The translations under genes were made by a program, and so were the position numbers. The notes below the pieces were generated by a model. The model had not been told where the DNA came from. It saw only the letters and a program-made list of their open reading frames with translations, and searched no databases. Shown piece after piece: positions 1,256-55,744 of a DNA stretch of 64,000 nt (its first letter is position 1; each line of letters starts with the position of its first letter). Origin of the DNA: a phage; the sequence record PV467749.1, one strand, 5' to 3'.

Positions 1256-1256
1256 T

Positions 1257-1475: not shown

Positions 1476-1476
1476 T

Positions 1477-2636: not shown

Positions 2637-2851
2637 TTGCATTTACTTTTGACCTCTTTCAGTAGAGCATCAACCCATATGTCTACATACATTTGTTGAT
2701 AGTTTGTGTCTAATAGTGCACCTACATATAGTTCAGCTACCATTGCGTGCTTTAGGTCAACAGGGATGCTCTTATCAGATTGAATCTTTACCCTTCTGCT
2801 TCCACATGTTTTCAGAAGCTTAACATATTCGTAACCTATTAATTTTCTCAT
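2633..2851 (-). CDS. family-1 small protein (LDTNYQ variant)
   Basis: Motif LLDTNYQQM; ATGA overlap. Confidence 0.75.
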   Translation of the reverse strand: MRKLIGYEYVKLLKTCGSRRVKIQSDKSIPVDLKHAMVAELYVGALLDTNYQQMYVDIWVDALLKEVKSKCK

Positions 2852-3063
2852 TCTCTGGATAACACCTTGTTGCGTAAGGCACTTAACAATACGTCAGTGT
2901 AGATGTTTTGATAGTTTGTTCCTACGAAAGCACCCAACTTCATTTCAGCTATTATAACACATTTGTCCTCTTGTGCAATAGACTTGTCTAAAGAAATACT
3001 AACAACTTTCCTTCTTATAGCTTGTAACCTCCAATGATACTGAAACTCATTTAGTGTTATCAT
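2848..3063 (-). CDS. family-1 small protein (LGTNYQ motif)
   Basis: Motif FVGTNYQNI. Confidence 0.75.
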   Translation of the reverse strand: MITLNEFQYHWRLQAIRRKVVSISLDKSIAQEDKCVIIAEMKLGAFVGTNYQNIYTDVLLSALRNKVLSRE

Positions 3064-3298
3064 TATCTCGTCTCCATATCTCGGTTCTAATGTGTTGACA
3101 TTGTGCTTCGATGAACATATCTATTGATTTGGCAATTGCGTTTTTATCTGTGCCAGTCATCAGTACAAGCATCTCGGCCTCACAGTGAAGTAAACGCATG
3201 ATATCATAGGGTAATATTCCAGATACCGTGTCATAGTGTTTCTGTGCCAGTGTCTGTAATAGTTTACAATACATTTTGTGATTTAGTCTGTGTCGCAT
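3047..3298 (-). CDS. family-1 small protein, divergent member
   Basis: Same size and position in the array, but the motif is degraded to MTGTDKNAI. Confidence 0.6.
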   Translation of the reverse strand: MRHRLNHKMYCKLLQTLAQKHYDTVSGILPYDIMRLLHCEAEMLVLMTGTDKNAIAKSIDMFIEAQCQHIRTEIWRRDNDNTK

Positions 3299-3537
3299 TG
3301 TTTATTCCATTCTTTTTTTTTGGCCTTGATGGTTTTATATTGGATTTGGTTTCTTAATGCTGATAAGTATCGTTGAATGAACAGATCTTGATAGTTTGTT
3401 CCAATGAATTTCATAAGATAAAGTTCACCGTTGATAACATCCACTTCAGGTGCACCATATAAGGCATTGTTTTTTCTAAGGGCATGGATTAAAGAGAATA
3501 GGGCAGTTTGATACTCAACTCCTGATAAAATCTTCAT
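3283..3537 (-). CDS. family-1 small protein (LGTNYQ motif)
   Basis: Motif FIGTNYQDL; start set at MKILSGVEY (track 3558 adds MIICSQN). Confidence 0.7.
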   Translation of the reverse strand: MKILSGVEYQTALFSLIHALRKNNALYGAPEVDVINGELYLMKFIGTNYQDLFIQRYLSALRNQIQYKTIKAKKKEWNKQCDTD

Positions 3538-3772
3538 GTTTTGTGAGCAAATAATCATCTAGTTTATCCTGTATAACATTCGTTAATTGTTCGATATATT
3601 CTGTGCAAAACTTATCTTGATATTGAGTCCCCATAAAGTACAGCAACCATAGCTCATTAACTTTAGCTCGCATTTGGTTCCATGTAAGGCTGGGGTCATC
3701 GTAGACTATCCTTGCTATAGGGGTTAGTTTACGGACTATAGTTTCATATTCATCTAGTGTTAAGTGTTTCAT
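3515..3772 (-). CDS. family-1 small protein (GTQYQ variant)
   Basis: Motif FMGTQYQDK; ATGA overlap upstream. Confidence 0.75.
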   Translation of the reverse strand: MKHLTLDEYETIVRKLTPIARIVYDDPSLTWNQMRAKVNELWLLYFMGTQYQDKFCTEYIEQLTNVIQDKLDDYLLTKHEDFIRS

Positions 3773-3987
3773 TTACATTTGTCCCTTATTAGATCAGTGA
3801 GGGCAACTATGTGTGCAACAACATACTCTTCCTGAAAGTTCGTCCCCAGTACAGCCATCATGCGTATATCGGTGGTGTTTATCCTGTGTTCCCTTACACA
3901 TAAACCTTCTGTGTGAGGAAGTGTAAAATATTTGTTTATTGCAGCAACGATAATTTTATTCTTCTCGGAGTTACTTAAATGTTTCAT
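3769..3987 (-). CDS. family-1 small protein (LGTNFQ variant)
   Basis: Motif VLGTNFQEE; ATGA overlaps. Confidence 0.75.
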   Translation of the reverse strand: MKHLSNSEKNKIIVAAINKYFTLPHTEGLCVREHRINTTDIRMMAVLGTNFQEEYVVAHIVALTDLIRDKCK

Positions 3988-4196
3988 AGTTTACTCCTGA
4001 TATAATTCTGAAGTGCAATTAAGTATTCCCCTACATAATACACCTGAAAGTCTGTATCAAGGAATGCACCCATAAGTAAATCTTTTTCTAATACCCTTGA
4101 TAAGTTAAGGTCTGCATTTGAAAGGTATATAAGTAAGATTTCACCCTGTGCGGAATTGAAACGTTTCTTATATTCTTCTGGTGTTAAAAAAATCAT
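3984..4196 (-). CDS. family-1 small protein (LDTDFQ variant)
   Basis: Motif FLDTDFQVY; close duplicate of 4193..4408 (shared DLNL..VLE..LLGAFL and YIRSKL). Confidence 0.75.
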   Translation of the reverse strand: MIFLTPEEYKKRFNSAQGEILLIYLSNADLNLSRVLEKDLLMGAFLDTDFQVYYVGEYLIALQNYIRSKL

Positions 4197-4408
4197 AATT
4201 TGCTCCTGATATATTTCTCAAGAGATGACAAATACTTTTCCTCATAATACTTCTGATAGTCTGTTCCTAAGAATGCACCCAAAAGTATTTCATTTTCCAA
4301 TACCTCGGCTAAGTTTAAATCAGAAGTCTCTTCGTATATTATGAGGATTTCAAGTTGTCTGGCAGCGATGCGTTCAGTATATTGATATGAGTTTTCTATA
4401 ATAATCAT
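4193..4408 (-). CDS. family-1 small protein (LGTDYQ variant)
   Basis: Motif FLGTDYQKY; ATGA overlaps. Confidence 0.75.
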   Translation of the reverse strand: MIIIENSYQYTERIAARQLEILIIYEETSDLNLAEVLENEILLGAFLGTDYQKYYEEKYLSSLEKYIRSKL

Positions 4409-4614
4409 AATTTACTCTTTATATCTTGAATTAAAAATCGAATCCATTCTTCAACATAATCTTCCTGATGGTTTGTGTTCAGTACAGCCAACATGCGGAT
4501 CTCTGCTCTTGCAACTTCAATTTCAGTTTTAGGAAGGTCTTTGCTGATATCCACCATTAAGTCCATGTATTTCAAGATAAGACCGTATGATTGGGTTCGT
4601 GTTATAGTTTTCAT
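4405..4614 (-). CDS. family-1 small protein (LNTNHQ variant)
   Basis: Motif VLNTNHQED; ATGA overlaps. Confidence 0.75.
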   Translation of the reverse strand: MKTITRTQSYGLILKYMDLMVDISKDLPKTEIEVARAEIRMLAVLNTNHQEDYVEEWIRFLIQDIKSKL

Positions 4615-4811
4615 TGTTTCCTCGTGGACAATATTTTATTTTTCAATGTATCCATATATTGAATCACCCATCTTTCCTGATAGTTAGTTCCCAAAGTAAT
4701 CAAAAGGTATAACTCCATTCGTTCTACGTGTGTGTCTGTATTATAAATCTTTGTGAAGTTTTTACGTAACAGTTCTTGATAATCTTCTTTATTTAAAATA
4801 CGCATTTTCAT
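4611..4811 (-). CDS. family-1 small protein (LGTNYQ motif)
   Basis: Motif TLGTNYQER; ATGA overlap. Confidence 0.75.
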   Translation of the reverse strand: MKMRILNKEDYQELLRKNFTKIYNTDTHVERMELYLLITLGTNYQERWVIQYMDTLKNKILSTRKQ

Positions 4812-5005
4812 AGTCTACCTTTTATGTCCCTTCGTAATTCTTGTAAGTATAGTTCGATATACTTTTCTTGATAGTTAGTTCCTATGAAAAGTTTCATAAC
4901 CAATTCACGCTTATATGCAATACCACGGATATGTGACATATGTAGGATATATGCCATGTTGGATATGAGTGTGTGGTTGTGCTCTTCTTGAGTTAAAATA
5001 CGCAT
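4808..5005 (-). CDS. family-1 small protein (LGTNYQ motif), first gene of the array
   Basis: Motif FIGTNYQEK; SD GGAG upstream; a promoter lies just upstream. Confidence 0.75.
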   Translation of the reverse strand: MRILTQEEHNHTLISNMAYILHMSHIRGIAYKRELVMKLFIGTNYQEKYIELYLQELRRDIKGRL

Positions 5006-24666: not shown

Positions 24667-24778
24667 TAGCCGTCTATACTTCCAGACGTGTAACCATCTA
24701 GCCGTTTAGCCGTCCAAACGTCTAGCCATCCAGCCATCCAGAAATCTAGCCGTTTAGCCGTCTAGATGGATAGCCATC
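24667..24778 (+). repeat. iteron cluster, 8 copies of TAGCCGTY / YAGCCATC
   Basis: Copies at 24667, 24699, 24707, 24723, 24731, 24747, 24755, 24771. Flanked by a CTTCCAGAC pair and RCCCAAAATYC repeats. Confidence 0.8.
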
Positions 24779-25180
24779 TTTACTTCCAGACTTCTGGAGG
24801 GCTAGACATATCTACGCCCAAAATCCATCCAGGGTAACTACACCCAAAATCCGTCAGTACTATACCATAGATCTATCTTTTGAAAGGGAGTATTCAGTAC
24901 TGCCATCATAGCCCTCACTATGTTACCCTAGGAGGATGAAGACTATCATGTAGTACTGAATACTGTTAGAGGGAATCCACCAGCTTGTGCTGGTGGCATA
25001 ATGCTTTAGATTAAAATCAGTACTGACACCATTCTGTTAATATCAGTACTGTTATTACGATTTTCATATGAGGTTCAAAAAGATGTACCACCACAGGAGG
25101 AACTATCTTTTCTGTACTGTCTCACGACAGGAGGTAGAGTAAATGAATTGTTCGCAGCAACTCATCTCTCTATGTAGAAC

Positions 25181-25208
25181 ATTATACAGTACTGAATCAT
25201 AATGTCAA
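25181..25208 (-). promoter_or_regulatory. orphan PeSL-type promoter (no gene downstream)
   Basis: TTGACA-N16-TATAAT with a GTTCTACATAGAGAG leader like the early-gene cassettes, but followed only by ORF-free DNA. Confidence 0.55.
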
Positions 25209-25486
25209 TAGCTTTCTTTCATTATTCAGTACTGATATTCTTGAGAACTACCCGACTACAAACATCATTATATCCCACAAATCATAAACGTCCCAACGTA
25301 AATTTCAACTTTCGAAGAACCAACTTTTATTTCATAGGTACTCCAAAATTTTTAGGATCGAGATTTAGGATGGAGTACTAACCAACTTTTTGCTGGAGCC
25401 TCAAGGGGTAATTGAATTTTACCCCGAAGGGTAAAAGGGTAATTGAAATTAAGGTGAAAGTAATAATTCAGTACTAATCATTGCGT

Positions 25487-25514
25487 GATTACTTTTGATT
25501 ACATTTGATGTAAT
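25487..25514 (+). repeat. three GATTAC-type hexamers phased at 10 bp
   Basis: GATTACttttGATTACatttGATGTAAT. Confidence 0.7.
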
Positions 25515-25726
25515 TTGCAAAATGGAAAAGGAGCTTGGAAACTACAAAGTACGGCAGACTTCCTCTGCCTACTTAGTGACATATCGACACCTTCAGTACT
25601 GAATACTTTTAGGGCAGTACTGAATCCTTCCCTAGCATTCTTGAGTAATCTTGTCTATAATAATCAGTACTGAATCATATATAATCATTCTGTGATTCTA
25701 CGGTGCTCATATAAATGTTTATATAT

Positions 25727-25752
25727 GATTACTTATGACTACATATGATTAC
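25727..25752 (+). repeat. three GATTAC-type hexamers phased at 10 bp (second cluster)
   Basis: GATTACttatGACTACatatGATTAC. Confidence 0.7.
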
Positions 25753-25875
25753 GGGGTTTAGCCTGGGGAGAATCCTAGTGATCGCATTTGTCCAGGCTGA
25801 ATTTTAACAATTCTTCTAATTGTTAAAGCCTGTCCAATGCTTTCCCTGCGGAGCTTCCCCTGTCTATATGTTGAA

Positions 25876-26082
25876 TTACTTCCTATATATAAGCATTAAC
25901 ATATAGTAGTACTGATTATGCTGTACATTCTCTTTAATATTATAAGGGTCTATAGCAATCTCGGTACATCTGTTAAATGCATATCTATTAAATGCCAGTA
26001 CTATTATAGATCTAATCCATGCTTGGTCAGTCGGTGGTAGTTTACTTATATAGTACTCTTTATAGTTTTTTATGTTCTGCAT
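25876..26082 (-). CDS. family-2 small protein
   Basis: MQNIKNYKEYYISKL..YYYMLMLIYRK; last gene of the array. Confidence 0.7.
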   Translation of the reverse strand: MQNIKNYKEYYISKLPPTDQAWIRSIIVLAFNRYAFNRCTEIAIDPYNIKENVQHNQYYYMLMLIYRK

Positions 26083-26093
26083 AGTATACCTTA

Positions 26094-26285
26094 TTATTTC
26101 AAAGTACCATATAGTACTCTTAATAGGAAGTAGTACGTATTAGAGATATCATTAGTAGTTAAAACAATCTTAGTACACATATTAAATTCGTATTGAGTCA
26201 TTGCCAGGGGGATTAAATTGTTAACCCATGCTTGTTCGTTTTCTTTGAGTTTACTTATATAGAAATCTTTATGTTCTTTATTCAT
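26094..26285 (-). CDS. family-2 small protein
   Basis: MNKEHKDFYISKL..YYFLLRVLYGTLK. Confidence 0.7.
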   Translation of the reverse strand: MNKEHKDFYISKLKENEQAWVNNLIPLAMTQYEFNMCTKIVLTTNDISNTYYFLLRVLYGTLK

Positions 26286-26487
26286 ATAGGAATAGTATAC
26301 CTATGATGCCGGAGTACATATTAGTACTGTTATTATTGTCGTTTGCGTTTAAGGTCATTTGAATACAATTATTGTAGCATAATCTGCCGAAATATGTATC
26401 AGTACTTAAAGGTGCTGTAGTCCTTAGAAACATTTGTTCTGTGGGGCTGAGGTGTTTGGAGTAGAATTCTTTATGTTCTTTATTCAT
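26278..26487 (-). CDS. family-2 small protein
   Basis: MNKEHKEFYSKHLSPTEQMFLR..; close to 26861..27067. Confidence 0.7.
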   Translation of the reverse strand: MNKEHKEFYSKHLSPTEQMFLRTTAPLSTDTYFGRLCYNNCIQMTLNANDNNNSTNMYSGIIGILFLYE

Positions 26488-26492
26488 ATTAG

Positions 26493-26678
26493 TTAGTGTC
26501 TGTATATAAGTAATAGTAAGAATACGTACTGCACCTGTTCATCTTTAGTATTGAGTACTGTACGTATTGCGTCATGGAACAAGAATATAGTACTTGGGTC
26601 ATTAGAATTTAAGGGGTTTACGGGGACGGCGTGTTTGTAGTTCCCTTTAACAAATTGTATATAGTATTCTCTATGCAT
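26493..26678 (-). CDS. family-2 small protein
   Basis: MHREYYIQFV..YVFLLLLIYRH. Confidence 0.7.
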   Translation of the reverse strand: MHREYYIQFVKGNYKHAVPVNPLNSNDPSTIFLFHDAIRTVLNTKDEQVQYVFLLLLIYRH

Positions 26679-26679
26679 A

Positions 26680-26868
26680 TCAGTACCTATATATTAGGGC
26701 GAGAATGTAGTACAGTTTATATGTATTATAATCTGGGTTGATAGCACATAGTGTGTGGTAGTGGAATTGTTTGGTATTTTTCTTATCCTTGATATCTATT
26801 GGGATTTGTGGTATAAGCATTTGGGAGTTTAGATCGAGATGGCTTAAGTAGAATTCTTTGTTATTCAT
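26680..26868 (-). CDS. family-2 small protein
   Basis: MNNKEFYLSHL..LYYILALIYRY. Confidence 0.7.
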   Translation of the reverse strand: MNNKEFYLSHLDLNSQMLIPQIPIDIKDKKNTKQFHYHTLCAINPDYNTYKLYYILALIYRY

Positions 26869-27067
26869 AGAAGAATATTAGTCCCATTACGCCTGAGTAT
26901 TGAATATTTTTGTTATTGTTTTCTAAAGCTTCTAGAGTAATACGTATACAATTATTAAAGCAATCTCTGGCGTGTGGTGTATCTAAACGTAAAGGTGATA
27001 CACTCCTTAGAAACATTTGTTCTGATGCACTGAGGTGTTTGGTGTAAAATTCTTTCTGTTCGTTCAT
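26861..27067 (-). CDS. family-2 small protein
   Basis: MNEQKEFYTKHLSASEQMFLR.. Confidence 0.7.
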   Translation of the reverse strand: MNEQKEFYTKHLSASEQMFLRSVSPLRLDTPHARDCFNNCIRITLEALENNNKNIQYSGVMGLIFFYE

Positions 27068-27077
27068 ATTGGCCTCT

Positions 27078-27266
27078 TTAGTACACGAAAGCTAGGTACA
27101 GTACATGATACAGTACTCGATGATAGCTATCAAAATCTAGTATACATGCTTTAGTGCACATAGTAAAGTACACTTTATCGTTTTGAGCATTGATACCGCG
27201 AGGTTTATCTAATAGATTAGTACTGAGGTACATTGGGAAATATTTTGTGTAGTATTCTTTATGCAT
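27078..27266 (-). CDS. family-2 small protein
   Basis: Start set at MHKEYYTKYF (the track adds 15 residues that overlap the upstream gene). Confidence 0.7.
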   Translation of the reverse strand: MHKEYYTKYFPMYLSTNLLDKPRGINAQNDKVYFTMCTKACILDFDSYHRVLYHVLYLAFVY

Positions 27267-27267
27267 A

Positions 27268-27450
27268 TTAGTACCTGAATATAAGTAGGATAGTGTTATA
27301 TAATTGGTCATAGCTACTACTATTTTCTATACTGCGTTCTATGCAATTATTGAATCCCAGTACTGCCAAATCGTTATCCAGGGGGACTTTATATCTGGCG
27401 TAGTGTTCAAATATACTGGGGAGAAATTGTGTGTAGTATTCTTTGTGCAT
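27268..27450 (-). CDS. family-2 small protein
   Basis: MHKEYYTQFL..LYNTILLIFRY. Confidence 0.7.
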   Translation of the reverse strand: MHKEYYTQFLPSIFEHYARYKVPLDNDLAVLGFNNCIERSIENSSSYDQLYNTILLIFRY

Positions 27451-27451
27451 A

Positions 27452-27643
27452 TTAGTACTTATATATTAGTAAAAGGATGTGATACAGTACTCTATTATAG
27501 TCCTCAATATATATCGAGGATTTAGTGCACTGAATGAAGTAGTCTTTTTCGTAGTCTTTTTCTATACTCAATTGTTTTGTTGGTACAAGGTGTTGGAGAT
27601 ACATTGGGAGTTTCTCTATGTAGTATTCTTTGTGGTTATTCAT
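27452..27643 (-). CDS. family-2 small protein
   Basis: MNNHKEYYIEKL..LYHILLLIYKY. Confidence 0.7.
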   Translation of the reverse strand: MNNHKEYYIEKLPMYLQHLVPTKQLSIEKDYEKDYFIQCTKSSIYIEDYNRVLYHILLLIYKY

Positions 27644-27651
27644 ATTATGTG

Positions 27652-27825
27652 TTATTTCGTGAAAACAAGGGTTAGTACTGCATAGTACAAGTCATACGTA
27701 TCTTTAGGGTTAATAGCACCTTTAATACATTCTTTCATTACTTCATTATAGATAATTTTAGTACTGAATGTATTGGATGTTACTATATCGGAATTAAGGT
27801 ACGAGAGGTAGAATTCTTTATACAT
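27652..27825 (-). CDS. family-2 small protein
   Basis: Start set at MYKEFYLSYL (57 aa); 8-nt overlap with the stop of 27818..28477. Confidence 0.65.
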   Translation of the reverse strand: MYKEFYLSYLNSDIVTSNTFSTKIIYNEVMKECIKGAINPKDTYDLYYAVLTLVFTK

Positions 27826-28477
27826 AGTTTGAAATATACGTAATGAGGTGATGAAATTTCTTATCAGTACTGATAAGTTCCTGTACATGTTTTGTTAGTT
27901 TGTACGCGTTTTTATAGAGTCCTGGATTATCGATTACAGTACTGTACATGAATTCTTCTTCCTCGGATAATTCTTTGTGTTCTAGTTCTTTGAGGAATTG
28001 CAGTACTGTATCAGTTTCGTTAGTACGTTGCTTTTGGAAGAAGTGCATGTTATCGTGTATTTTTTCTGAACCCATGCAGTACATATCGCCGATTTGGAAT
28101 TGTGCAGTACTGATATCATGGGTGCTATTACAATTCCCGAAGAAGTATACATTCCCGAAAGATAGAATTATAGTGCACGGGATATTATCCATGTGTATAT
28201 AGATAGATGCATTCTTTAGTGCTTTTGTGCTGGTATTAGTACTCAATACTTTTAAATCAGTATTATAGATATTAATAAAAGCAAGAGCTATATTATTTTT
28301 CTTCAAGTACGATTTGAGGTTCTTAGATACGAGAACATTTCTGGATTTTTTCTTTTTATTTCGTTTCTTTAGTACACACGGGTCGTAAGTATATGCTGGT
28401 GTAAAAGATTCTGCTTGAATACTGTTGAGGTATTTAAAGTGCTTAAGGTATTGTTTGCTGTGTGCATTAAGTTTCAT
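27818..28477 (-). CDS. hypothetical 219-aa protein, distant paralog of 48973..49623 and 62828..63400
   Basis: Basic N-terminus with a family-2-like KQYLKHFKYL. Shared late motif ELSEEEEFMYSTVI vs KLPEEQLFQYSLI vs KLNEEEYFQESIV. Confidence 0.75.
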   Translation of the reverse strand: MKLNAHSKQYLKHFKYLNSIQAESFTPAYTYDPCVLKKRNKKKKSRNVLVSKNLKSYLKKNNIALAFINIYNTDLKVLSTNTSTKALKNASIYIHMDNIPCTIILSFGNVYFFGNCNSTHDISTAQFQIGDMYCMGSEKIHDNMHFFQKQRTNETDTVLQFLKELEHKELSEEEEFMYSTVIDNPGLYKNAYKLTKHVQELISTDKKFHHLITYISNYV

Positions 28478-28487
28478 TTGGTTTCCT

Positions 28488-28667
28488 TTATACAGATGCG
28501 AGAGCGAGGATTTCCCTGAAGGGATTATCTTTTGTTAGTGCGTGATGAATGCAGCTATTGAGATTAATATTTTTAGTACTATTAGTTGCCAGGTTGTAGT
28601 ACTTCACGAAGGTGTCGTACATGAAACGGTCTTTAATGCTTATGTGTTCTATATAGTATTCTTGCAT
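28488..28667 (-). CDS. family-2 small protein (59 aa, below ORF-track cutoff)
   Basis: My translation: MQEYYIEHISIKDRFMYDTFVKYYNLATNSTKNINLNSCIHHALTKDNPFREILALASV. Confidence 0.6.
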   Translation of the reverse strand: MQEYYIEHISIKDRFMYDTFVKYYNLATNSTKNINLNSCIHHALTKDNPFREILALASV

Positions 28668-28675
28668 ATTATTCC

Positions 28676-28864
28676 TTACATAGAGATGAGTTTCAGTACA
28701 TCAATATACATATAACGTTCAGATGACAGTACACGGGTAGTGATAATCTCAATCGATATATTTTTAATTCCATGTGCAGATGATTGATGGTGCTGAATAA
28801 ATGAGTTGTGCATACTTTGTTCTATGTGGTTTAGTTTATTGAAGTAGTACTCAAAAGTGTTCAT
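28676..28864 (-). CDS. family-2 small protein
   Basis: MNTFEYYFNKL..YMYIDVLKLISM. Confidence 0.7.
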   Translation of the reverse strand: MNTFEYYFNKLNHIEQSMHNSFIQHHQSSAHGIKNISIEIITTRVLSSERYMYIDVLKLISM

Positions 28865-28871
28865 GTCTACC

Positions 28872-29051
28872 TTAGATTAAGATTAGTTTAAGTACTTCTC
28901 TGTACGTGTACTTTTCGTTTTGTGCTTCTACTGTACACGAGAGTAGATAACGTTTTTTATCTCTTTTGTTCCCGACTGTGTAGTACCTTTGGAATTTATT
29001 ATAGTTGTATCTATCTTTGTGCTGGAGGTTATAGATATAGAATTCTTGCAT
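28872..29051 (-). CDS. family-2 small protein (59 aa, below ORF-track cutoff)
   Basis: My translation: MQEFYIYNLQHKDRYNYNKFQRYYTVGNKRDKKRYLLSCTVEAQNEKYTYREVLKLILI. Confidence 0.65.
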   Translation of the reverse strand: MQEFYIYNLQHKDRYNYNKFQRYYTVGNKRDKKRYLLSCTVEAQNEKYTYREVLKLILI

Positions 29052-29059
29052 AGAGTACC

Positions 29060-29245
29060 TTAGATTGCTATCAGTTTGAGTACTTCAATATATGTGCGGT
29101 ACTCTGCTTTAATTAAATTTGTACACACTGTAAGGGAATTTCTTTGTATAAGTTTATTGCCGCTTTTATACGCATTTCTCCACACATAGAGATGAGATCT
29201 TTCAGGCATAGATAGTTTATTTGTATAGTACTCAAATGTGTTCAT
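29060..29245 (-). CDS. family-2 small protein
   Basis: MNTFEYYTNKL..YRTYIEVLKLIAI. Confidence 0.7.
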   Translation of the reverse strand: MNTFEYYTNKLSMPERSHLYVWRNAYKSGNKLIQRNSLTVCTNLIKAEYRTYIEVLKLIAI

Positions 29246-29253
29246 ATATTACC

Positions 29254-29436
29254 TCAAATAGAGATTAGTTTAAGTACTTCTCTGTATGTGTACTTTTCGT
29301 TTTGTGCATCTCTTGTGCTTGTATATAGGTATCCTCGACGATATTTGTTGCTCCCGTTCTTGTAGTTGAATTCGAACTTATTGTAGATGAATCTATCGCC
29401 AGGCTGTAATTTACTTAAGTACAATTCAATGTTCAT
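29254..29436 (-). CDS. family-2 small protein
   Basis: Start set at MNIELYLSKL (track 29457 adds MICKENT); ends YTYREVLKLISI. Confidence 0.65.
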   Translation of the reverse strand: MNIELYLSKLQPGDRFIYNKFEFNYKNGSNKYRRGYLYTSTRDAQNEKYTYREVLKLISI

Positions 29437-29446
29437 AGTATTCTCT

Positions 29447-29632
29447 TTACATATCAATAAGTTTCAGTACTGCTCTGTACGTGTACTTAGTTGTTAGTGC
29501 TTCTTTTATAGCAATACAGAAGTAATGTTGTTTGTCTCTTATACTACCGCGTTTGTAGTACCATACATTGGAGTTGTGGGTGTACTTGTCCCTGTCGGAT
29601 AGATTTTGGTAATAGTATAATATATGATTCAT
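29447..29632 (-). CDS. family-2 small protein
   Basis: MNHILYYYQNL..YTYRAVLKLIDM; ATGA overlap upstream. Confidence 0.7.
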   Translation of the reverse strand: MNHILYYYQNLSDRDKYTHNSNVWYYKRGSIRDKQHYFCIAIKEALTTKYTYRAVLKLIDM

Positions 29633-29841
29633 GGTAATGTAATTAGCCTTATTATGTTAAAGTACTCGGTCCCTGGTACACCTTGTAGAATATTATCAAC
29701 TACATTTTCTTGGTGCAGGATTAATACATTCGGTGCGGTTCTTTTAAGGTTTTTTAAAGTACTGTATTCTTGTTTAAGGATGAACTGTACATCTTTAGGG
29801 AGAATATCTAAGTAGTACTGGTGTATGTTCATAGTTTTCAT
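29629..29841 (-). CDS. family-2 small protein
   Basis: MKTMNIHQYYLDIL..YFNIIRLITLP. Confidence 0.7.
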   Translation of the reverse strand: MKTMNIHQYYLDILPKDVQFILKQEYSTLKNLKRTAPNVLILHQENVVDNILQGVPGTEYFNIIRLITLP

Positions 29842-29852
29842 ATAGTACTCTT

Positions 29853-30038
29853 TTAGAACTTAAAGATGAGGTTCATGATAGATAAGTACTTAGTTTCAGG
29901 AAATTGATGTTCTATTGCATAACGTGTCTCCAGTCTGAAGTCAAATTTATAAAAGGGACTATTCATATCCATAGGTTCATTGGGAAATGAATCTCTGTAT
30001 TGTTTGTGCAGCTTACTACAGTAGAATTCTTTATACAT
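29853..30038 (-). CDS. family-2 small protein
   Basis: MYKEFYCSKL..YLSIMNLIFKF. Confidence 0.7.
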   Translation of the reverse strand: MYKEFYCSKLHKQYRDSFPNEPMDMNSPFYKFDFRLETRYAIEHQFPETKYLSIMNLIFKF

Positions 30039-30039
30039 A

Positions 30040-30252
30040 TTAGTGCTCGATTAAAAGGGTTAGGATGTAATAGTATTGCATACTTTCTACCCCTTGTACA
30101 GCATTTCTTATTTTATTATTCCTGTACGAGTTCAAGAGTTTAGGACAATGTTTGAAGTTTATATAATTATTTTGTGTATACAGTAGGCTTTCTCGTAGAC
30201 CTTTTGTTGGTAGTGCATCAATGTAGTACTGTTCAATGTTCATAGTGTTCAT
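30040..30252 (-). CDS. family-2 small protein
   Basis: MNTMNIEQYYIDAL..YYYILTLLIEH; ATGA overlap. Confidence 0.7.
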   Translation of the reverse strand: MNTMNIEQYYIDALPTKGLRESLLYTQNNYINFKHCPKLLNSYRNNKIRNAVQGVESMQYYYILTLLIEH

Positions 30253-30476
30253 AGAGCTACCAGTACTAAGATTTTTGATAATTGTTTATTGCTATCCCCG
30301 CAGATGTTGCTGTGTAAAATACTCACTACAAGGGTATCAAGTGCATTGTTCAGCATAAGGTTACATCCAGTACTGTTATGTGTTTTTAGCTCAATTAGCC
30401 ACGAACTATCCGCGAGAAACTTCGCGTACTCTAGTTCATTTAGAGTATTAATGTAGTACTTAAGTGTAGTTGTCAT
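30249..30476 (-). CDS. family-2 small protein, first gene of the array
   Basis: MTTTLKYYINTLNELE..LSKILVLVAL; SD AAGGAG. Confidence 0.65.
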   Translation of the reverse strand: MTTTLKYYINTLNELEYAKFLADSSWLIELKTHNSTGCNLMLNNALDTLVVSILHSNICGDSNKQLSKILVLVAL

Positions 30477-30485
30477 GTACAGTTC

Positions 30486-30512
30486 TCCTTATATTCCTTA
30501 TATTCCTTCTAT
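30486..30512 (-). repeat. 3 x 9-bp tandem repeat in the leader of the family-2 array
   Basis: Plus strand: TCCTTATAT TCCTTATAT TCCTTCTAT. Minus strand: ATAGAAGGA ATATAAGGA ATATAAGGA (SD-like AAGGA x3). Confidence 0.8.
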
Positions 30513-30539
30513 AGTACATCAGTACTGAAAGGTTGTCAA
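30511..30539 (-). promoter_or_regulatory. sigma70-type promoter for the family-2 array
   Basis: TTGACA-N17-TACTAT on the minus strand, in the divergent gap shared with the RCC1 array. Confidence 0.65.
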
Positions 30540-30565
30540 GGGTTTTCTTTTTGGGGTAAATATGA

Positions 30566-30587
30566 TATAATGAATAAAGGAGGAAAT
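30566..30587 (+). promoter_or_regulatory. RCC1-array leader (-10 TATAAT + SD), copy 1
   Basis: TATAATGAATAAAGGAGGAAAT then ATG; no recognisable -35. Confidence 0.45.
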
Positions 30588-31724
30588 ATGTTACCTTTTG
30601 CAAGAATGGTTAAGTACGGGAACGTAGCACCAGATAAACTAAAAATACGTGATATTGTTGCAGGTGCTAATTCATTATTACTAATAACCGAGGATAATGA
30701 ATTATGGGTGCGTGGTAATAATGCGTATGGCAAATTAGGTATAGGAACTGATACTATAGTGAATGTAACCGAGTGGACTAAAGTTAGAGATGATGTTAAG
30801 TTTGCTTGTGCTAGTAATTTAGTATGCGTTGTATTAACTGTAGATAATAAAATTTTCTACTGTGGTGATCAATGGTTTGAATCTGGTGGTTCGACAAGTT
30901 CTAAAGTTGTTACATGGAAAGATGTTACGACACAATTTAGTGCAGTGAATCTAAGCACAGTTCGTGAAATGAAAATAACTTATTATTGTGTAGGATTACT
31001 TACAAATGATAATAGATTATATGCTAAAGGATATGATAATAACCAATCATTTGGTGGTTCAACAAGCAAAGTTAATGCTGTATTAGTTGCGTCAAATGTT
31101 TCAAAATTCTACACTTCTCTATCTGGTACTATATATTCTAGTACTACTGGTGGTTACTACCGCTGTGGTATAAGCAATACTGGAGCATTGGGTACTAGCA
31201 CAAATTTAACTTCTTATAATTTGTACTCTGCTCCCGAATTTGCATCCGAATGTGCAGTTGGTATGTCAACATTAAACTCTGGTATATTATATTATGATAC
31301 TAATGGTATCACTAGATATGTTATAGCAGGTCAAAATAGAAATTATCAACTAGGTAATTCTTCTTCAAATACCACAAACGTATATTCGTATACAGAATTA
31401 ACCGGATATAGAGGCAGGTTTAGGGATTTGTGGAGTGATATGAATAACTCTGTTCTTTCTTTTGCTATAAGCACAGATGGCAATACTTTATATTATGCTG
31501 GTACTAACAATACACTATCTTCTGGTGATCCTGGTGTTGAATATTCATCTGCATTTAAAGAAGTACCACACGGGTTTAATGATATAACAAAGGTGGTATC
31601 GTTAGCCTATCTATCTATAGTGCAAGATTCAACTGGATGGTATTATTCTGGAAATGCAACTACGTTATATGGTTTGCCATCGAGTGATGAATTTATACCA
31701 TTACCATTACCAACAATAATTTAA
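30588..31724 (+). CDS. RCC1-like seven-bladed beta-propeller protein, array copy 1
   Basis: Start at MLPFARMVKYGN (the track adds MNKGGN = translated SD). Blades e.g. LWVRGNNAYGKLGIG; close to copy 5. Confidence 0.85.
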   Translation: MLPFARMVKYGNVAPDKLKIRDIVAGANSLLLITEDNELWVRGNNAYGKLGIGTDTIVNVTEWTKVRDDVKFACASNLVCVVLTVDNKIFYCGDQWFESGGSTSSKVVTWKDVTTQFSAVNLSTVREMKITYYCVGLLTNDNRLYAKGYDNNQSFGGSTSKVNAVLVASNVSKFYTSLSGTIYSSTTGGYYRCGISNTGALGTSTNLTSYNLYSAPEFASECAVGMSTLNSGILYYDTNGITRYVIAGQNRNYQLGNSSSNTTNVYSYTELTGYRGRFRDLWSDMNNSVLSFAISTDGNTLYYAGTNNTLSSGDPGVEYSSAFKEVPHGFNDITKVVSLAYLSIVQDSTGWYYSGNATTLYGLPSSDEFIPLPLPTII

Positions 31725-35388: not shown

Positions 35389-36510
35389 ATGTTACCTTTT
35401 GTTAGAATGTTTGATTATGGAAATGAAGTACCTGATCCTAGTTCGGGATTTCGAATAATAAGTACAGGAGACGCATTACTATTAATTACTAAGAGTGGTG
35501 ATTTGTGGGTGCGTGGTTATAACCGTTATGGTAAGTTAGGTATAGGTAATAACACCACTACCTATGTACTTGATTGGACGAAGGTTAGAAGTGATGTAAA
35601 GTTTGCGTGTGGTAGTGGATTGGTAACAGTTATCTTTACTAAGGATAATCGCATATTGTACTGTGGTGACAAATGGTTTGAAACGGGTGGTGTTGGTAGT
35701 GCACAGATTTTCACATGGACAGATGTTACGCATCAATTTGGGGTAGTAGATTTGAGTACTGTAAGGGATATGAAAATATCTTATTACGCGATTGGGTTAG
35801 TTACTACTAATAATCAATTATACGCTAAGGGATTTGATAATAACCTATCATTTGGTGGGGTTACTAATAAGGCGACTGCTGTGTTTATTGCGAATAATGT
35901 ACAAGAGTTGTATACGAGTTTAGTTAGTACTATCTACGTTGATACAAGTGGTATATTACATCGTTGTGGCATGAGTGATAACGGTTCGTTGGGTAATAAT
36001 GGTAGTTTAACTTCGTATCTAAGTTATTCACAGACTGGTATGACGATTAAGGACATTGGAATGATGACTACGAACACTGGGTTATTATATACTGATTCTA
36101 GTGCACGCACGAGATATTTTATTGCTGGACAGAACTTGAATAAACAGATGGGTAATGCGGCGGGTGCGAGTGCCATTACGAGTACTTACACAGAGCTTTC
36201 TGGTAGTGTTGATAAGTTTTCTTCTTTATGGGAGAATGATGGGATATTGATGACATTTGCTGTGGGTAAGAACACTAATCAGTTATTTTATGCTGGGATG
36301 AATACTTTTCATGCGAGTGGTGGTGAATCTTCATATGCGGATACATATGAGTTAGTCCCGATGGTGTTTAATGACATACAGGAAGTGTTATGTGCACAGC
36401 GTTTATCGGTGGTACATGATTCTACGAAGTGGTATTACTGTGGTGATGCTAATTCAATGTATGGTTTACCGGACGTAAGTACTTTTACTGAGTTACCGTT
36501 GCCCTTTTAA
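35389..36510 (+). CDS. RCC1-like beta-propeller protein, copy 5
   Basis: MLPFVRMFDYGN; LWVRGYNRYGKLGIG; close paralog of copy 1. Confidence 0.85.
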   Translation: MLPFVRMFDYGNEVPDPSSGFRIISTGDALLLITKSGDLWVRGYNRYGKLGIGNNTTTYVLDWTKVRSDVKFACGSGLVTVIFTKDNRILYCGDKWFETGGVGSAQIFTWTDVTHQFGVVDLSTVRDMKISYYAIGLVTTNNQLYAKGFDNNLSFGGVTNKATAVFIANNVQELYTSLVSTIYVDTSGILHRCGMSDNGSLGNNGSLTSYLSYSQTGMTIKDIGMMTTNTGLLYTDSSARTRYFIAGQNLNKQMGNAAGASAITSTYTELSGSVDKFSSLWENDGILMTFAVGKNTNQLFYAGMNTFHASGGESSYADTYELVPMVFNDIQEVLCAQRLSVVHDSTKWYYCGDANSMYGLPDVSTFTELPLPF

Positions 36511-50861: not shown

Positions 50862-51233
50862 TTATAACATACGTTTTTTACGAATAGTATTGTGGATATT
50901 TTTTAAGTAGTTCACACCTTTACACAACCCATAAAATACACCAGCACATACACCAAATGCAGGTATCATACATGCAAACATCGTTATCAATTCCCACATC
51001 TCCATGCCATCTTGATTCGGTCCAAGGTCAAAGATAACAACCGAAACCAAACCTGTGATACTTAGCATATAATATGCCATGAAGATAATAAAAGAAACAA
51101 TACCAACATCAGAGCGAACTGAATTTAGCATATTATATACTGGGGTTACACAGAAGTAATACAATAACCAAATCAAAGAACCTAAACTAAACACAATAAT
51201 AGTAATGATCGAAAATATTTCACGATAACTCAT
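50862..51233 (-). CDS. small multi-pass membrane protein, TM family member
   Basis: 123 aa, 3-4 hydrophobic helices, basic tail IHNTIRKKRML. Confidence 0.75.
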   Translation of the reverse strand: MSYREIFSIITIIVFSLGSLIWLLYYFCVTPVYNMLNSVRSDVGIVSFIIFMAYYMLSITGLVSVVIFDLGPNQDGMEMWELITMFACMIPAFGVCAGVFYGLCKGVNYLKNIHNTIRKKRML

Positions 51234-51234
51234 T

Positions 51235-51597
51235 TTAGTTCCTCTTACCTAAACGCTCATGGATTTCGGAAATCTTATTATACATCCATGCCAGCAACTC
51301 AACGGATGCACAGAGAATAACCACACACAGTGTTAGTGAACATACCATAATACCAAATGTTATAAAATTCGAACTCGATGTTAATAATGCAACCAGCATT
51401 AGAATAAAACCAAAATTGAATGCTGTACTCAACACAGTATATGCTGGACTATATCTCCTTTGTATTACATCATATATATTTGATAATGGTCGCTTATGGA
51501 AGTACTTCCCAATGCACACGAATGCATTCAGTGAGAAGATAAATGTATACGCCATTACCATTAATTGACCAATAAAAGATAATTCAATATTATTCAT
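51235..51597 (-). CDS. small multi-pass membrane protein, TM family member
   Basis: 120 aa; tail IHERLGKRN. Confidence 0.75.
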   Translation of the reverse strand: MNNIELSFIGQLMVMAYTFIFSLNAFVCIGKYFHKRPLSNIYDVIQRRYSPAYTVLSTAFNFGFILMLVALLTSSSNFITFGIMVCSLTLCVVILCASVELLAWMYNKISEIHERLGKRN

Positions 51598-51598
51598 G

Positions 51599-51970
51599 TT
51601 ATCCTCGTTTGCGGTATTTGATGCTTTGGTGCATTCTCTGAAAATGTGGAACTAATACATATTGTACGGTTTGCCAAATTACCATCAGATTATGGACAGC
51701 ACCACCGAGTAGACCAAACACTACACAGATAATTGCCAGTACTGGATCACCATCTACCATACCCCATTTGAATATATGTAAAATCCATACAGTGATAAGT
51801 AGTAATAAACTAATCCAATACGTAGTAAAAAATCCTGCATGTAATTCATAGTCATCAGCAATTTCATCGTATACGGTTTCCAAGAAGGATACACAGAAGA
51901 ACTTGCCAATAATAATAATTGTACTAATAAACAACATAGCAGTTAATATAATAAGTGCAATTTCCATCAC
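51599..51970 (-). CDS. small multi-pass membrane protein, TM family member
   Basis: 123 aa; tail MHQSIKYRKRG; ATGA overlap upstream. Confidence 0.75.
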   Translation of the reverse strand: MMEIALIILTAMLFISTIIIIGKFFCVSFLETVYDEIADDYELHAGFFTTYWISLLLLITVWILHIFKWGMVDGDPVLAIICVVFGLLGGAVHNLMVIWQTVQYVLVPHFQRMHQSIKYRKRG

Positions 51971-52281
51971 ATCCCTCGTTTACGCTTTTGATTGCGTCTA
52001 AATTCGGTTAGCCCACGACTAATCGGTGGCATCAGACTACATAAAAAAATAACAGTTGTTGGTAATAACATGAAGTCAATCATTGCTGTATTAACAGGTG
52101 GATCACATACCAAATAATACAAACAAGTAATACTAATTATGGTTGACCCAATAAAAGGAATACAAAATTCTTTTATCTGTTTTTCAACATAATCAAACAT
52201 CTTCAATACAAATAAAAATCCAACCCAACACATAATAAAATAGAATGAATAAAGCGTGTAAATCAATGTTACGATATCCAT
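51967..52281 (-). CDS. small multi-pass membrane protein, TM family member
   Basis: 104 aa; tail EFRRNQKRKRGM. Confidence 0.75.
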   Translation of the reverse strand: MDIVTLIYTLYSFYFIMCWVGFLFVLKMFDYVEKQIKEFCIPFIGSTIISITCLYYLVCDPPVNTAMIDFMLLPTTVIFLCSLMPPISRGLTEFRRNQKRKRGM

Positions 52282-52619
52282 TAGTACCTCGCATCAGGAA
52301 CTTTAGCACGTAATTTATGAACGACTGGGAACAACAACAAACTTACATATGCAATAGTTGAACCCCAATAGAATACTAATATAATTGGTTCACCATTGGA
52401 ACGGAACCCTCTACTAATCATTGAGTAGTGAATAATAGGCATGAACATCGCCATACCAAACCATGCGTGTAATTTTAATTGCAGCATGTTATCAGAGATG
52501 AATACTGAAATTGGTCGTTTGAAGAACCACATCAGAAAGTAGAATCCAGCACTAAGGATATAGTACATAGTACTAACTTTCATATACCACGGCAGTAAGT
52601 GTAAAAAATATTCCATCAT
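52281..52619 (-). CDS. small multi-pass membrane protein, TM family member
   Basis: 112 aa; tail KLRAKVPDARY. Confidence 0.75.
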   Translation of the reverse strand: MMEYFLHLLPWYMKVSTMYYILSAGFYFLMWFFKRPISVFISDNMLQLKLHAWFGMAMFMPIIHYSMISRGFRSNGEPIILVFYWGSTIAYVSLLLFPVVHKLRAKVPDARY

Positions 52620-52963
52620 TCCTCCGGTATCTTGTTTCGAAGTTCAATCATAACACAACAAAGTTTAATGGTCAAGTAAAAAACTACACATATCATACCC
52701 AATGTACCGTAAACTGCGGAGAATGCTGGCAGTACCTTTCCTGTGAGTGTTGCTACAATACATGCTATCAATGTTGATGCAAACAACGATTGATTAATGA
52801 AAGAATTCATAAAATCTTCACCATTACGCTTATAGAATTGTCGTTTAAAATACCATCCTAGAAACATAACTACCCAAAATGTTACATAACCTGTTAGAAT
52901 AATCCCTGCAATTGAATGTGCAACAGAACTACTCTTTAAAAACTCAAGATAAGATTCAAACAT
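52616..52963 (-). CDS. small multi-pass membrane protein, TM family member
   Basis: 115 aa; tail ELRNKIPEE. Confidence 0.75.
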   Translation of the reverse strand: MFESYLEFLKSSSVAHSIAGIILTGYVTFWVVMFLGWYFKRQFYKRNGEDFMNSFINQSLFASTLIACIVATLTGKVLPAFSAVYGTLGMICVVFYLTIKLCCVMIELRNKIPEE

Positions 52964-53301
52964 TAGAAGTCCCCACGAATTTTTGCTCTACCATTAATGA
53001 TGAGATTAAACAAGTATATCAGCACCCAAATTAGTAATCCAAGGAATACAATATATTGTGATATTGAGTTCAACTGTGGATTAGCACAATAAATTAAGTG
53101 TGCGATAAGACCAACAATTGCAAACATACCTTGGATAATAGTGAAAAGAAGTAGTGAAATGTTTCCATCTGGATACAGTTTGAAAACGATTTTCTTTTTA
53201 AAATACCATAGTACTACAACTAGTGCATGATAAAAGAAAAAACCAAACAGATAAATCAAAGTAATACTAAGCATTGTATCTGAATTAAAAAACTCAAGCA
53301 T
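52963..53301 (-). CDS. small multi-pass membrane protein, TM family member (first of the operon)
   Basis: 112 aa; tail INGRAKIRGDF. Confidence 0.75.
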   Translation of the reverse strand: MLEFFNSDTMLSITLIYLFGFFFYHALVVVLWYFKKKIVFKLYPDGNISLLLFTIIQGMFAIVGLIAHLIYCANPQLNSISQYIVFLGLLIWVLIYLFNLIINGRAKIRGDF

Positions 53302-53330
53302 ATCGTATCTCCGGTGGTGAATATTAAGTT

Positions 53331-53359
53331 ATAGTACTACACTATGGTAGTACTGTCAA
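53331..53359 (-). promoter_or_regulatory. sigma70-type promoter for the membrane-protein operon
   Basis: TTGACA-N17-TACTAT. Confidence 0.65.
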
Positions 53360-53368
53360 TACATGTAA

Positions 53369-54142
53369 TTAAATTTTCTCAAGGAACATGTTTTCTGCCA
53401 TTGACTCCCAATCATATGGAAATTTATTATACAGACCAGCGATCAGTACTGGCATACGCAGAGAAGGTGAACGCAGCTTTTCTTCGTTGTTCAGCATCCA
53501 GTTTAAGATAGCTTTACAACCATTTTTATTAACCCCATTGTTCTCAAGAATATTAGTCTTGTTCATGATGTTCTCAATGTGAATCATAACTTCTTCGTTA
53601 GTGAACAGTTGAAGATCAACAAAGATACTACGAGTAATCAGTGCATCAATGTGTGGTGCTAAACTGCTTTTACCTTTAGCAATCTGTGACAGGTTTTTGT
53701 TCGTCAGGAAGATTACCTTCCCACGGAATTCAAACTGCTTAGGAATACCCTGCTGTTCCAGGTACTTCCCAGAAGTTGCATAAGATACAACCCGCTTCTC
53801 TGAAGTATCCAGTACTGCTTTGAGCAAGTCAATGTTGGTTTCATCGCTGAAGATATCAACGTCATCAAGTAACAGTACTGAAGCGGCATGACGTGAACGA
53901 TACAGTGCTTCGTACAAACCCATAGTGGTTACTTTACCGCTGATCTTTTTGTAGTCGATTTCAAAGTTATCATCAGCTTTCTGTAAACGCTGGTCAACGT
54001 TGTAAGTTTTACCAACACCACCTTTACCAGATACAATCAGGGAATTGATTGAATTAGCTTGGGTATCAAGTAAACATTCCAAAGCTGCCATCATGCTGTT
54101 GAAGTTCTTTTCGATTTGGATTGCTTTCTCTGTACGGGTCAT
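53369..54142 (-). CDS. P-loop NTPase (AAA-like ATPase)
   Basis: 257 aa; Walker A SGKGGVGKT, Walker B VLLLDDVD, sensor-like FLTN. Confidence 0.85.
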   Translation of the reverse strand: MTRTEKAIQIEKNFNSMMAALECLLDTQANSINSLIVSGKGGVGKTYNVDQRLQKADDNFEIDYKKISGKVTTMGLYEALYRSRHAASVLLLDDVDIFSDETNIDLLKAVLDTSEKRVVSYATSGKYLEQQGIPKQFEFRGKVIFLTNKNLSQIAKGKSSLAPHIDALITRSIFVDLQLFTNEEVMIHIENIMNKTNILENNGVNKNGCKAILNWMLNNEEKLRSPSLRMPVLIAGLYNKFPYDWESMAENMFLEKI

Positions 54143-54170
54143 GTATTCATCCTCTCGTCTTGATGAAATA

Positions 54171-55267: not shown

Positions 55268-55276
55268 ATTTTTTAA

Positions 55277-55733: not shown

Positions 55734-55744
55734 ATAAGTTATCC

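Follow-up and report, generated by a model that had tools for sequence, protein, structure and literature searches.

Positions 25876 to 30476 of a 64,000-nucleotide stretch from an Asteriusvirus jumbo coliphage (121Q/PBECO4 group; sequence record PV467749.1; the whole stretch is hereafter ‘the window’) are occupied by a minus-strand tandem array of twenty very small genes, interrupted once by a gene for a protein of 219 amino acids (aa). The small genes (‘family 2’, as distinct from a ‘family 1’ array at the left edge of the window) are designated R01 to R10 in the block to the right of the larger gene, M219, and L01 to L10 in the block to its left. The entire region is one translationally coupled, 21-gene operon behind a conserved sigma-70-type promoter, and the array consists of real genes under purifying but relaxed selection. 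The family’s proteins, of ~7 kDa, are predicted from sequence and modelling to be soluble, tyrosine-rich and all-helical. By analogy with other phages, it is proposed (at a rough probability of 45%) that they are early, non-virion effectors acting on host targets, in which a variable segment would set the target, and whose number has been expanded by tandem duplication.

Jumbo phages are under development for therapy, and about four-fifths of their genes lack an assigned function. Phages WPEC5 and fEgEco12 share the region from 25800 to 30600 at 98.9% identity, and it is matched in 34 phage records (Escherichia, 30; Salmonella, four). In seven relatives (WPEC5, SHEFM2K, G17, slurp01, phAPEC6, SP27 and JNE01), all of the open reading frames (ORFs) are intact.

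Family membership, selection and predicted fold

Membership was assessed with profile hidden Markov models (HMMs) in a ‘leave-one-out’ procedure, in which each member was omitted in turn and 300 shuffles of the same sequence served as the control. Nineteen of the twenty small proteins score 18–53 bits, against best shuffles of 8–17 bits. An earlier note on this DNA had allowed that the resemblance might be nothing more than AT-rich compositional bias with no conserved profile behind it; because 19 of the 20 exceed their shuffle maxima, that possibility falls away. The remaining protein, R01, was tried as a member and rejected (4.2 bits against a shuffle maximum of 14, and an hhalign probability of 3.5%); its orthologues are found in all genomes examined, JNE01 included. 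Members of the family are 15–45% identical to one another, no additional members are present elsewhere in the window, and the family is, as had been surmised, unrelated to family 1 (the array at 146–5005 that carries an LGTNYQE motif; hhalign probability 1.7%).

The same note had divided the small genes into two sub-families separated by M219. That division is roughly correct, but its boundaries are not: the ‘YTYREVLKLISI’ clade is tight and comprises R05 to R10 only, R03 is ‘left-type’ although it lies in the right block, R02 and R04 form a third group (with L10 as their best link outside the pair), and R01 stands outside altogether. A left-type gene is likewise found inside the right block in SHEFM2K, G17, slurp01, phAPEC6 and SP27. 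The N-terminal motif that had been ascribed to every member is also looser than described, with Tyr8 alone invariant and Leu12 present in 33 of 37 sequences.

M219 shows no detectable relation to the small family by hhalign. Its C-terminal 60 residues, which resemble a family-2 domain by eye (FLKEL...FHHLITYISNY), were rejected as one at 1.1 bits to the left-block HMM and an hhalign probability of 0.1%. The protein matches PHROG 29152 along its full length (E = 3e-113); no domain was found in it (the one weak Pfam match, at 15.9 bits, lies below the cut-off of 24), nor any homologue outside the genus, and its AlphaFold model is unusable, with a predicted local distance difference test score (pLDDT) of 37.5 from 21 homologues.

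Pooled Nei–Gojobori ratios of nonsynonymous to synonymous substitution rates (dN/dS) for orthologous pairs of the small genes are 0.27–0.44, compared (in the same genome pairs) with ~0.20–0.22 for 13–14 neighbouring genes and 0.14–0.18 for a 503-aa virion protein. Considered by segment, the ratio is 0.18–0.34, with ordinary dS, for the N-terminal (residues 1–13) and C-terminal (47–63) parts of the protein, and 0.47–0.62 for the middle (14–35). Low dN/dS combined with ordinary dS indicates that constraint on the conserved segments acts on the protein rather than on the DNA. Because the hexamer AGTACT is 13-fold enriched in the genome, the possibility was examined that the conserved Glu-Tyr-Tyr motif is a by-product of AGTACT at the DNA level, and was rejected: the glutamate codon is GAA, which creates no AGTACT, in 12 of 15 genes, and AGTACT is present there in six of 20. 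The codon for Tyr7 is TAC in 12 of 12.

The predicted structure of L02 (AlphaFold2, from a 39-sequence family alignment; pLDDT 90.1, predicted template-modelling score 0.73) contains helices at residues 4–10, 14–17, 30–45 and 49–62, with a loop at 18–29. A Foldseek search of this model against the PDB returned no match, and a fold search of BFVD returned only the family’s own members, so that nothing beyond the family matches the small, all-helical fold predicted for this protein. Conservation was profiled by column entropy over the 37 sequences (non-redundant at 60% identity): apart from the invariant Tyr8, the conserved positions are Glu6, Tyr/Phe7, Leu12, Phe36, Cys39, Thr/Ile40 and Leu44, together with Tyr53, Val/Ile56, Leu57, Leu59, Ile60 and Phe/Tyr61 in the C-terminal part, and the aromatic and aliphatic positions among them fit a buried core. 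Positions 14–35 are close to maximum variability, and surface charge is also free to vary between paralogues (isoelectric points between 5.5 and 9.6). Tyrosine makes up as much as 16% of the residues, compared with 5% in neighbouring proteins. No membrane segment was found: the top 19-residue Kyte–Doolittle mean is 0.95 for the 19 members and 1.13 for R01, against the usual threshold of 1.6. The C-terminal hydrophobic helix is only ~14 residues long and contains charged or polar residues, so that the transmembrane segment or lipoprotein signal expected of small phage membrane proteins (holins, spanins and superinfection-exclusion peptides) is absent.

Operon structure, turnover and distribution

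The operon comprises 21 consecutive minus-strand ORFs, which agree with the twenty small genes and one 219-aa gene originally listed (including both 59-aa members, at 28488–28667 and 28872–29051) except that three starts have been corrected. For those three (R06, L01 and L04), the GenBank annotation of WPEC5 agrees with the internal true starts. The features are as follows.

30511..30539, minus strand: operon promoter TTGACA-N17-TACTAT, with TTCAGTACTG in the spacer (10/12 in a consensus scan)
30485..30490, minus strand: Shine-Dalgarno sequence AAGGAG of the first gene, R01 (read from the sequence; invariant in the alignment)
30249..30476, minus strand: R01, 75 aa, first and longest of the operon’s small genes (conserved; not demonstrably a family member)
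30040..30252, minus strand: R02, 70 aa, pairs with R04 (leave-one-out 19.0 bits against a shuffle maximum of 12.7; R04 at 1e-10, L10 at 7e-6)
29853..30038, minus strand: R03, 61 aa, left-type though in the right block (35 bits to the left-block HMM; leave-one-out 30.4 bits)
29629..29841, minus strand: R04, 70 aa, pairs with R02 (leave-one-out 18.1 bits against a shuffle maximum of 8.8)
29447..29632, minus strand: R05, 61 aa, R05–R10 clade (HMM test)
29254..29436, minus strand: R06, 60 aa, R05–R10 clade, internal ATG as true start (HMM test; WPEC5 annotation)
29060..29245, minus strand: R07, 61 aa, R05–R10 clade (HMM test)
28872..29051, minus strand: R08, 59 aa, R05–R10 clade (HMM test)
28676..28864, minus strand: R09, 62 aa, R05–R10 clade (HMM test)
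28488..28667, minus strand: R10, 59 aa, R05–R10 clade (HMM test)
27818..28477, minus strand: M219, 219 aa, PHROG 29152, between the two blocks (same position in seven related genomes)
27652..27825, minus strand: L01, 57 aa, left-type, internal ATG as true start (HMM test)
27452..27643, minus strand: L02, 63 aa, left-type, the protein modelled (HMM test; AlphaFold pLDDT 90.1)
27268..27450, minus strand: L03, 60 aa, left-type (HMM test)
27078..27266, minus strand: L04, 62 aa, left-type, internal ATG as true start (HMM test)
26861..27067, minus strand: L05, 68 aa, left-type, duplicate partner of L08 (5e-27 to L08; DNA repeat D1, 72% identity, 583-nucleotide spacing)
26680..26868, minus strand: L06, 62 aa, left-type (HMM test)
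26493..26678, minus strand: L07, 61 aa, left-type (HMM test)
26278..26487, minus strand: L08, 69 aa, left-type (HMM test)
26094..26285, minus strand: L09, 63 aa, left-type (HMM test)
25876..26082, minus strand: L10, 68 aa, left-type, last gene of the operon (HMM test)
25553..25569, minus strand: hairpin GGCAGAGGAAGTCTGCC, a weak terminator candidate (terminator scan; first hairpin past L10, ~305 nucleotides beyond its stop)

The description of these genes as tiny, tightly packed and read from a single promoter is borne out. Gaps from gene to gene are −8 to +11 nucleotides; most starts have AGG, AAGG or GAGG upstream or overlap the preceding stop codon, and the ribosome-binding site is often made by the last codons of the upstream gene (Arg-Tyr-stop, AGG TAC TAA). 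Within the operon there is no conspicuous promoter or terminator. The promoter was found as predicted, at 30539–30511, with −35 and −10 elements that are invariant in seven Asteriusvirus genomes; JNE01 retains it as TTGACA-N17-TACAAT, for eight genomes in all. The AAGGAG of R01 is likewise invariant across the seven, in which the coding sequences differ by up to ~25% in protein identity.

Several deposited genomes miss some of these genes, and their annotation is corrected by this inventory (the 59-aa members had fallen below the ORF cut-off used for the earlier note). In phAPEC6, nine of 19 small genes (18 family members and the R01 homologue) are annotated, together with M219; several small genes each are absent from the annotations of slurp01 and SP27.

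Copy number varies among strains: SHEFM2K carries 21 small genes, the window, WPEC5 and slurp01 20 each, SP27 19, phAPEC6 18, G17 17 and JNE01 15 (R01 is included in these counts except that of JNE01, where its homologue is counted apart). The best paralogue pairs are two or three genes apart (R06/R08, R07/R09, R02/R04, L02/L04 and L05/L08), and DNA repeats are spaced at ~190, ~383 and ~585 nucleotides, corresponding to units of one, two and three genes; together, these distances indicate that the array grew by tandem duplication of one-, two- and three-gene blocks. In JNE01 the order is promoter, R01 homologue, right block, M219 and ten left-type genes, and this architecture is kept even though its L02 orthologue is only 37.5% identical. 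Members are thus still gained and lost between strains, while the overall layout, from promoter and R01 through the right block and M219 to the left block, is retained genus-wide.

The earlier note had recognised no homologue for these proteins, and little can be added to that statement. A search of Pfam-A with the 20 small proteins gave nothing above the gathering threshold (three sub-threshold chance matches, best E = 0.007). Eleven of the 20 match PHROG 11711, a family of unassigned function (best E = 2e-27; L02 matches it at 4e-24 over positions 1–62 of 62), and R01, R02, R04 and R08, scanned individually, do not. PHROG 11711 covers left-type members only, such that the R05–R10 clade, the R02/R04 pair and R01 belong to no PHROG, and neither it nor PHROG 29152 has an associated function, structure or literature. 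Outside these collections, a word-indexed search of 5.8 billion proteins returned 35 matches, and an exhaustive profile search covering 1.84 billion cluster representatives recovered 33 clusters, all of 59–69 aa. Neither search brought up proteins of markedly different length; the named matches and the divergent clusters that were looked up are from Asteriusvirus-like phages, the most divergent being from phages JNE01 and A4. A tblastn search with L02 found 36 of 50,697 phage records, all of them Asteriusvirus-like phages of Escherichia or Salmonella. By contrast, an RCC1-like protein encoded next to the array and the virion protein reach phages of Cronobacter, Klebsiella, Erwinia and Xanthomonas.

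Family-2 genes are already present in GenBank as hypothetical proteins, and a literature search found no paper that analyses them. Tandem expansions of small early genes confined to one phage lineage are a known kind of feature; the family and its fold are uncharacterised. Like the tandem expansions described in particular jumbo-phage lineages, in which genomes grow by tandem duplication of small genes, family 2 is such an array in the 121Q lineage, but it lacks a recognisable domain, unlike the zinc ribbon of the expansion compared. Tandem arrays in 121Q itself have received one sentence (PMC5646251); the genes concerned are called ‘very similar’ there, and are more likely to be family 1 than family 2.

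Candidate functions of the small proteins

The linear record of phage G17 repeats its positions 1–20668 at 350150–370817 with 100% identity, which identifies a terminal repeat; its authors give a terminal redundancy of ~20 kb (PMC6563267). Mapped onto the window, this repeat extends from ~5103 to 25572 (roughly 20.5 kb). The order of elements in the window is therefore the family-1 array (146–5005), the terminal repeat packed with small minus-strand genes, ~300 bp of non-coding DNA, the family-2 array (minus strand), a divergent spacer of 93 bp, and ~16 RCC1-like genes (30570–50825, plus strand). The family-2 operon ends ~300 bp from the inner boundary of the repeat (~25572), which the hairpin at 25553–25569 abuts. 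The array takes up 4.6 kb beside this repeat and persists in the whole genus, which makes it unlikely that it is dispensable.

On the reading that we favour, the operon, sited at the edge of the terminal repeat, would be read early by host RNA polymerase, and its non-structural products would each bind a host (or phage) macromolecule via the variable segment, forming a repertoire for host takeover or counter-defence that is broadened by diversification of paralogues. T4-type phages carry hyperplastic regions of small early ORFs behind sigma-70-type promoters; SPO1 gp37–60 and the pre-early genes of T5 are host-takeover modules in or next to terminal repeats; and African swine fever virus (ASFV; MGF110/360) and the poxviruses (gene ‘accordions’) provide terminal multigene families in large eukaryotic DNA viruses. 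Family 2 resembles the SPO1, T5, ASFV and poxvirus modules in its location at a genome terminus, its small, probably non-structural proteins, its variation in copy number between strains and its presumed role in host interaction, and shows no sequence or structural relationship to any of them. In the related phage CBB, RpoD-like promoters precede short hypothetical genes near the terminal repeat, which were read as early host-takeover genes (PMC5259590). It is from analogy with this CBB region, and with the T5 and SPO1 modules, that we infer early expression. As in the early regions of T4-related and Rak2-like phages such as CBB, the array consists of small ORFs without homologues behind a host-type −35/−10 promoter, lies at or beside the terminal repeat, and varies in gene content among close relatives; the features of such regions that are seen here are the sigma-70-type promoter, the 15–21 members per genome and the absence from the phAPEC6 virion proteome. 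The difference is that those regions mostly contain unrelated small genes, often each with its own promoter and terminator, whereas here 19 paralogues of a single fold are read from one promoter as a translationally coupled unit. None of the annotated small genes or M219 (gp540c–548c) is among the 62 virion proteins of phAPEC6, in which a protein of 4.7 kDa was detected, and the family-2 proteins are thus probably non-virion. If they are indeed early, host-directed effectors, then they could explain some of the differences between Asteriusvirus strains, and would supply a helical binder scaffold of 60 residues in ~19 naturally occurring versions.

Several observations weigh against this proposal. 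The dN/dS of the middle segment, at 0.47–0.62, is below 1, so that diversifying or positive selection is not demonstrated. Searches of Pfam, PADLOC, BFVD and the PDB found no sequence or structural similarity to any characterised host-takeover or anti-defence protein; among the operon products there is no match to the PADLOC models (which describe defence rather than anti-defence families), and none of the 21 contains a helix-turn-helix (as would be expected of an aca-like regulator beside an anti-CRISPR-type locus) or any other Pfam domain. A 10/12 promoter match is not rare in DNA this AT-rich (25 sites of at least 9/12 in 6.5 kb, with 31.5 expected), and the promoter is credible because it is conserved and well placed, the match alone not being significant. 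Virion mass spectrometry can miss very small proteins. A literature search returned no expression data for any Asteriusvirus, and the proposed early timing is deduced from promoter type and position. A considerably more specific version of the effector proposal is rather unlikely: that one mini-helical scaffold, diversified at residues ~14–35, would provide paralogues that each neutralise a different defence or surface-stress factor of E. coli, with copies duplicated and lost at the genome terminus so as to maintain the set. It would then be a phage counterpart of the terminal multigene families of large eukaryotic DNA viruses, based on a fold that has no structural relative beyond the family.

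The small proteins might instead serve the phage’s own programme, by binding nucleic acids or modulating transcription (for example, by redirecting RNA polymerase or by coating DNA or RNA), rather than acting on host targets. Four of the six proteins of the R05–R10 clade (R05 to R08) are strongly basic (isoelectric point 9.4–9.6, net charge +5 to +6) and rich in tyrosine, lysine and arginine, and the ~13-fold enrichment of AGTACT and ~90-fold enrichment of the palindrome CAGTACTG imply a sequence-specific binder somewhere in the system. However, most left-type members are neutral or acidic (5.5–8.7), Pfam detects no helix-turn-helix, zinc ribbon or other such domain, and it is hard to see why internal regulation would need ~19 diverged paralogues; this explanation is judged improbable.

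Slightly less probable still is the suggestion that family 2 serves the adjacent RCC1-like beta-propellers as dedicated partners, whether as chaperones of their assembly, as adaptors or as inhibitors. The back-to-back layout of the two arrays, over what had been described as a 110-bp divergent region, is real: the spacer measures 93 bp to the ATG at 30570, or 111 bp if the first RCC1 gene starts, as is probable, at its second ATG (30588, MLPF...), which lies behind a AAAGGAGG site and has the better support. The divergent adjacency is kept in all eight genomes examined, JNE01 included, and both arrays are multi-copy, to a similar order (~16 against 19–20 here). Against a partnership, the promoter classes on the two sides of the spacer differ, since a separate cassette accompanies most RCC1 genes (a GCCAGTACT...AGTACTGGC hairpin and a T-run, then TTAAATATAGTATAATGAATAAAGGAGG without a −35 element), in contrast to the −35/−10 sigma-70 promoter of family 2. 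The co-variation in copy number that had been put forward as a check was not convincingly seen over five genomes (RCC1/family-2 counts of 16/20, 15/20, 12/21, 12/17 and 11/18, the 11 being taken from PMC7247149), a weak test given that the genomes are related. The RCC1 array is, moreover, mosaic independently of the small-gene array. The RCC1 paralogue at 35389–36510 is 98–99% conserved in EC.P1 and TH47 (97.9% in the latter), whereas its best match in WPEC5 is only 26% identical, yet it is WPEC5 that has a small-gene array 98.9% identical to that of the window and TH47 that has a much more divergent one. Finally, GAP32, Munch, 7t3 and other phages carry RCC1-like genes and have no L02 match at E ≤ 0.1, and eight RCC1 paralogues were detected in phAPEC6 virions, in which no family-2 protein was detected. 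Functional coupling of family 2 with the propellers is not supported. As a separate observation, the RCC1 paralogues are very divergent (~26% identity), and phages that are near-identical in other respects carry different sets of them.

A third alternative, that family 2 encodes internal head proteins or proteins ejected with the DNA, would suit the ‘bubblegram’ pattern of 121Q, which fits an inner body (PMC5646251), and the proximity of these genes to the virion-associated RCC1 genes, but none of them was detected among the 62 phAPEC6 virion proteins, and their sigma-70-type promoter is unlike that before the RCC1 genes; this alternative is very unlikely. The last, that the ORFs are non-functional relics of duplication or alike through AT-rich bias only, might be prompted by a region of 33% GC and by tiny proteins without homologues outside the genus, and is effectively refuted by the shuffle and selection tests (18–53 bits for 19 of 20 members against maxima of 8–17, a margin put at 10–40 bits, and dN/dS well below 1), with further evidence against it in the lack of a single disrupted copy in seven related genomes, in the architecture kept by JNE01 at 37.5% identity of its L02 orthologue, and in the confident AlphaFold model.

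Neighbouring arrays and a recurrent palindrome

Family 1 occupies window positions 146–5005 on the minus strand, as at least 22 tightly overlapping genes of 65–91 aa with the LGTNYQE motif. This array continues past the left edge of the window and ends ~100 bp short of the start of the terminal repeat (5103); from the positions of families 1 and 2, it follows that two small-gene arrays flank both inner edges of the terminal repeats in virion DNA.

Between the family-2 operon and the first genes of the terminal repeat, positions 24900–25875 comprise ~970 bp of non-coding DNA that includes the inner repeat boundary at ~25572. This interval contains a perfect 12/12 sigma-70 promoter (25208–25181, minus strand), several copies of CAGTACTG and short tandem repeats, and matches no Rfam family. 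Within the terminal repeat, at 24667–24765, there are ~12 tandem copies of an 8-mer with the consensus TAGCCGTC (~64% matches). PADLOC, Rfam and tRNA scans found nothing.

The palindrome CAGTACTG is found 61 times in the window, with ~0.7 expected (~90-fold), and is densest at 4.4–25.7 kb; AGTACT (the ScaI site) is found 274 times, with 21.5 expected (~13-fold), and TTCAGTACTG, allowing one mismatch, has 140 matches as compared with 5.1 in shuffles. The arrangement TTGACA-N8-CAGTACTG-TATAAT, with the palindrome directly before the −10 element, occurs at 6417, 8390, 8884, 25187 and 56352, all on the minus strand, and copies of the motif are found, too, as the stems of terminator hairpins and within coding sequence. 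Such a distribution suggests that the CAGTACTG/AGTACT motif may have a genome-wide, sequence-specific function in DNA or RNA. Within the 660 bp of M219 there are four exact CAGTACTG sites, at window positions 27865, 27937, 28001 and 28105, three of which are read as Ser-Thr codons; all four are present in the window, WPEC5, SHEFM2K and SP27, one or two in G17, slurp01 and phAPEC6, and none in JNE01, and so these sites are not strictly conserved.

When the window is compared with G17 or SHEFM2K, dS is 0.17–0.26 in the small-gene array and ~0.6 for genes 20–30 kb away (50862–61028); this two- to threefold lower value in the array suggests that recombination has given this part of the genome a mosaic history. 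In that same neighbourhood, at 50862–53301 and 57021–58766 on the minus strand, there are more tight runs of ORFs, of 100–137 aa, with overlapping start and stop codons. Neighbouring genes of those runs in SHEFM2K have PHROGs in common (19454 twice and 19285 twice), which makes the existence of further small paralogous arrays probable.

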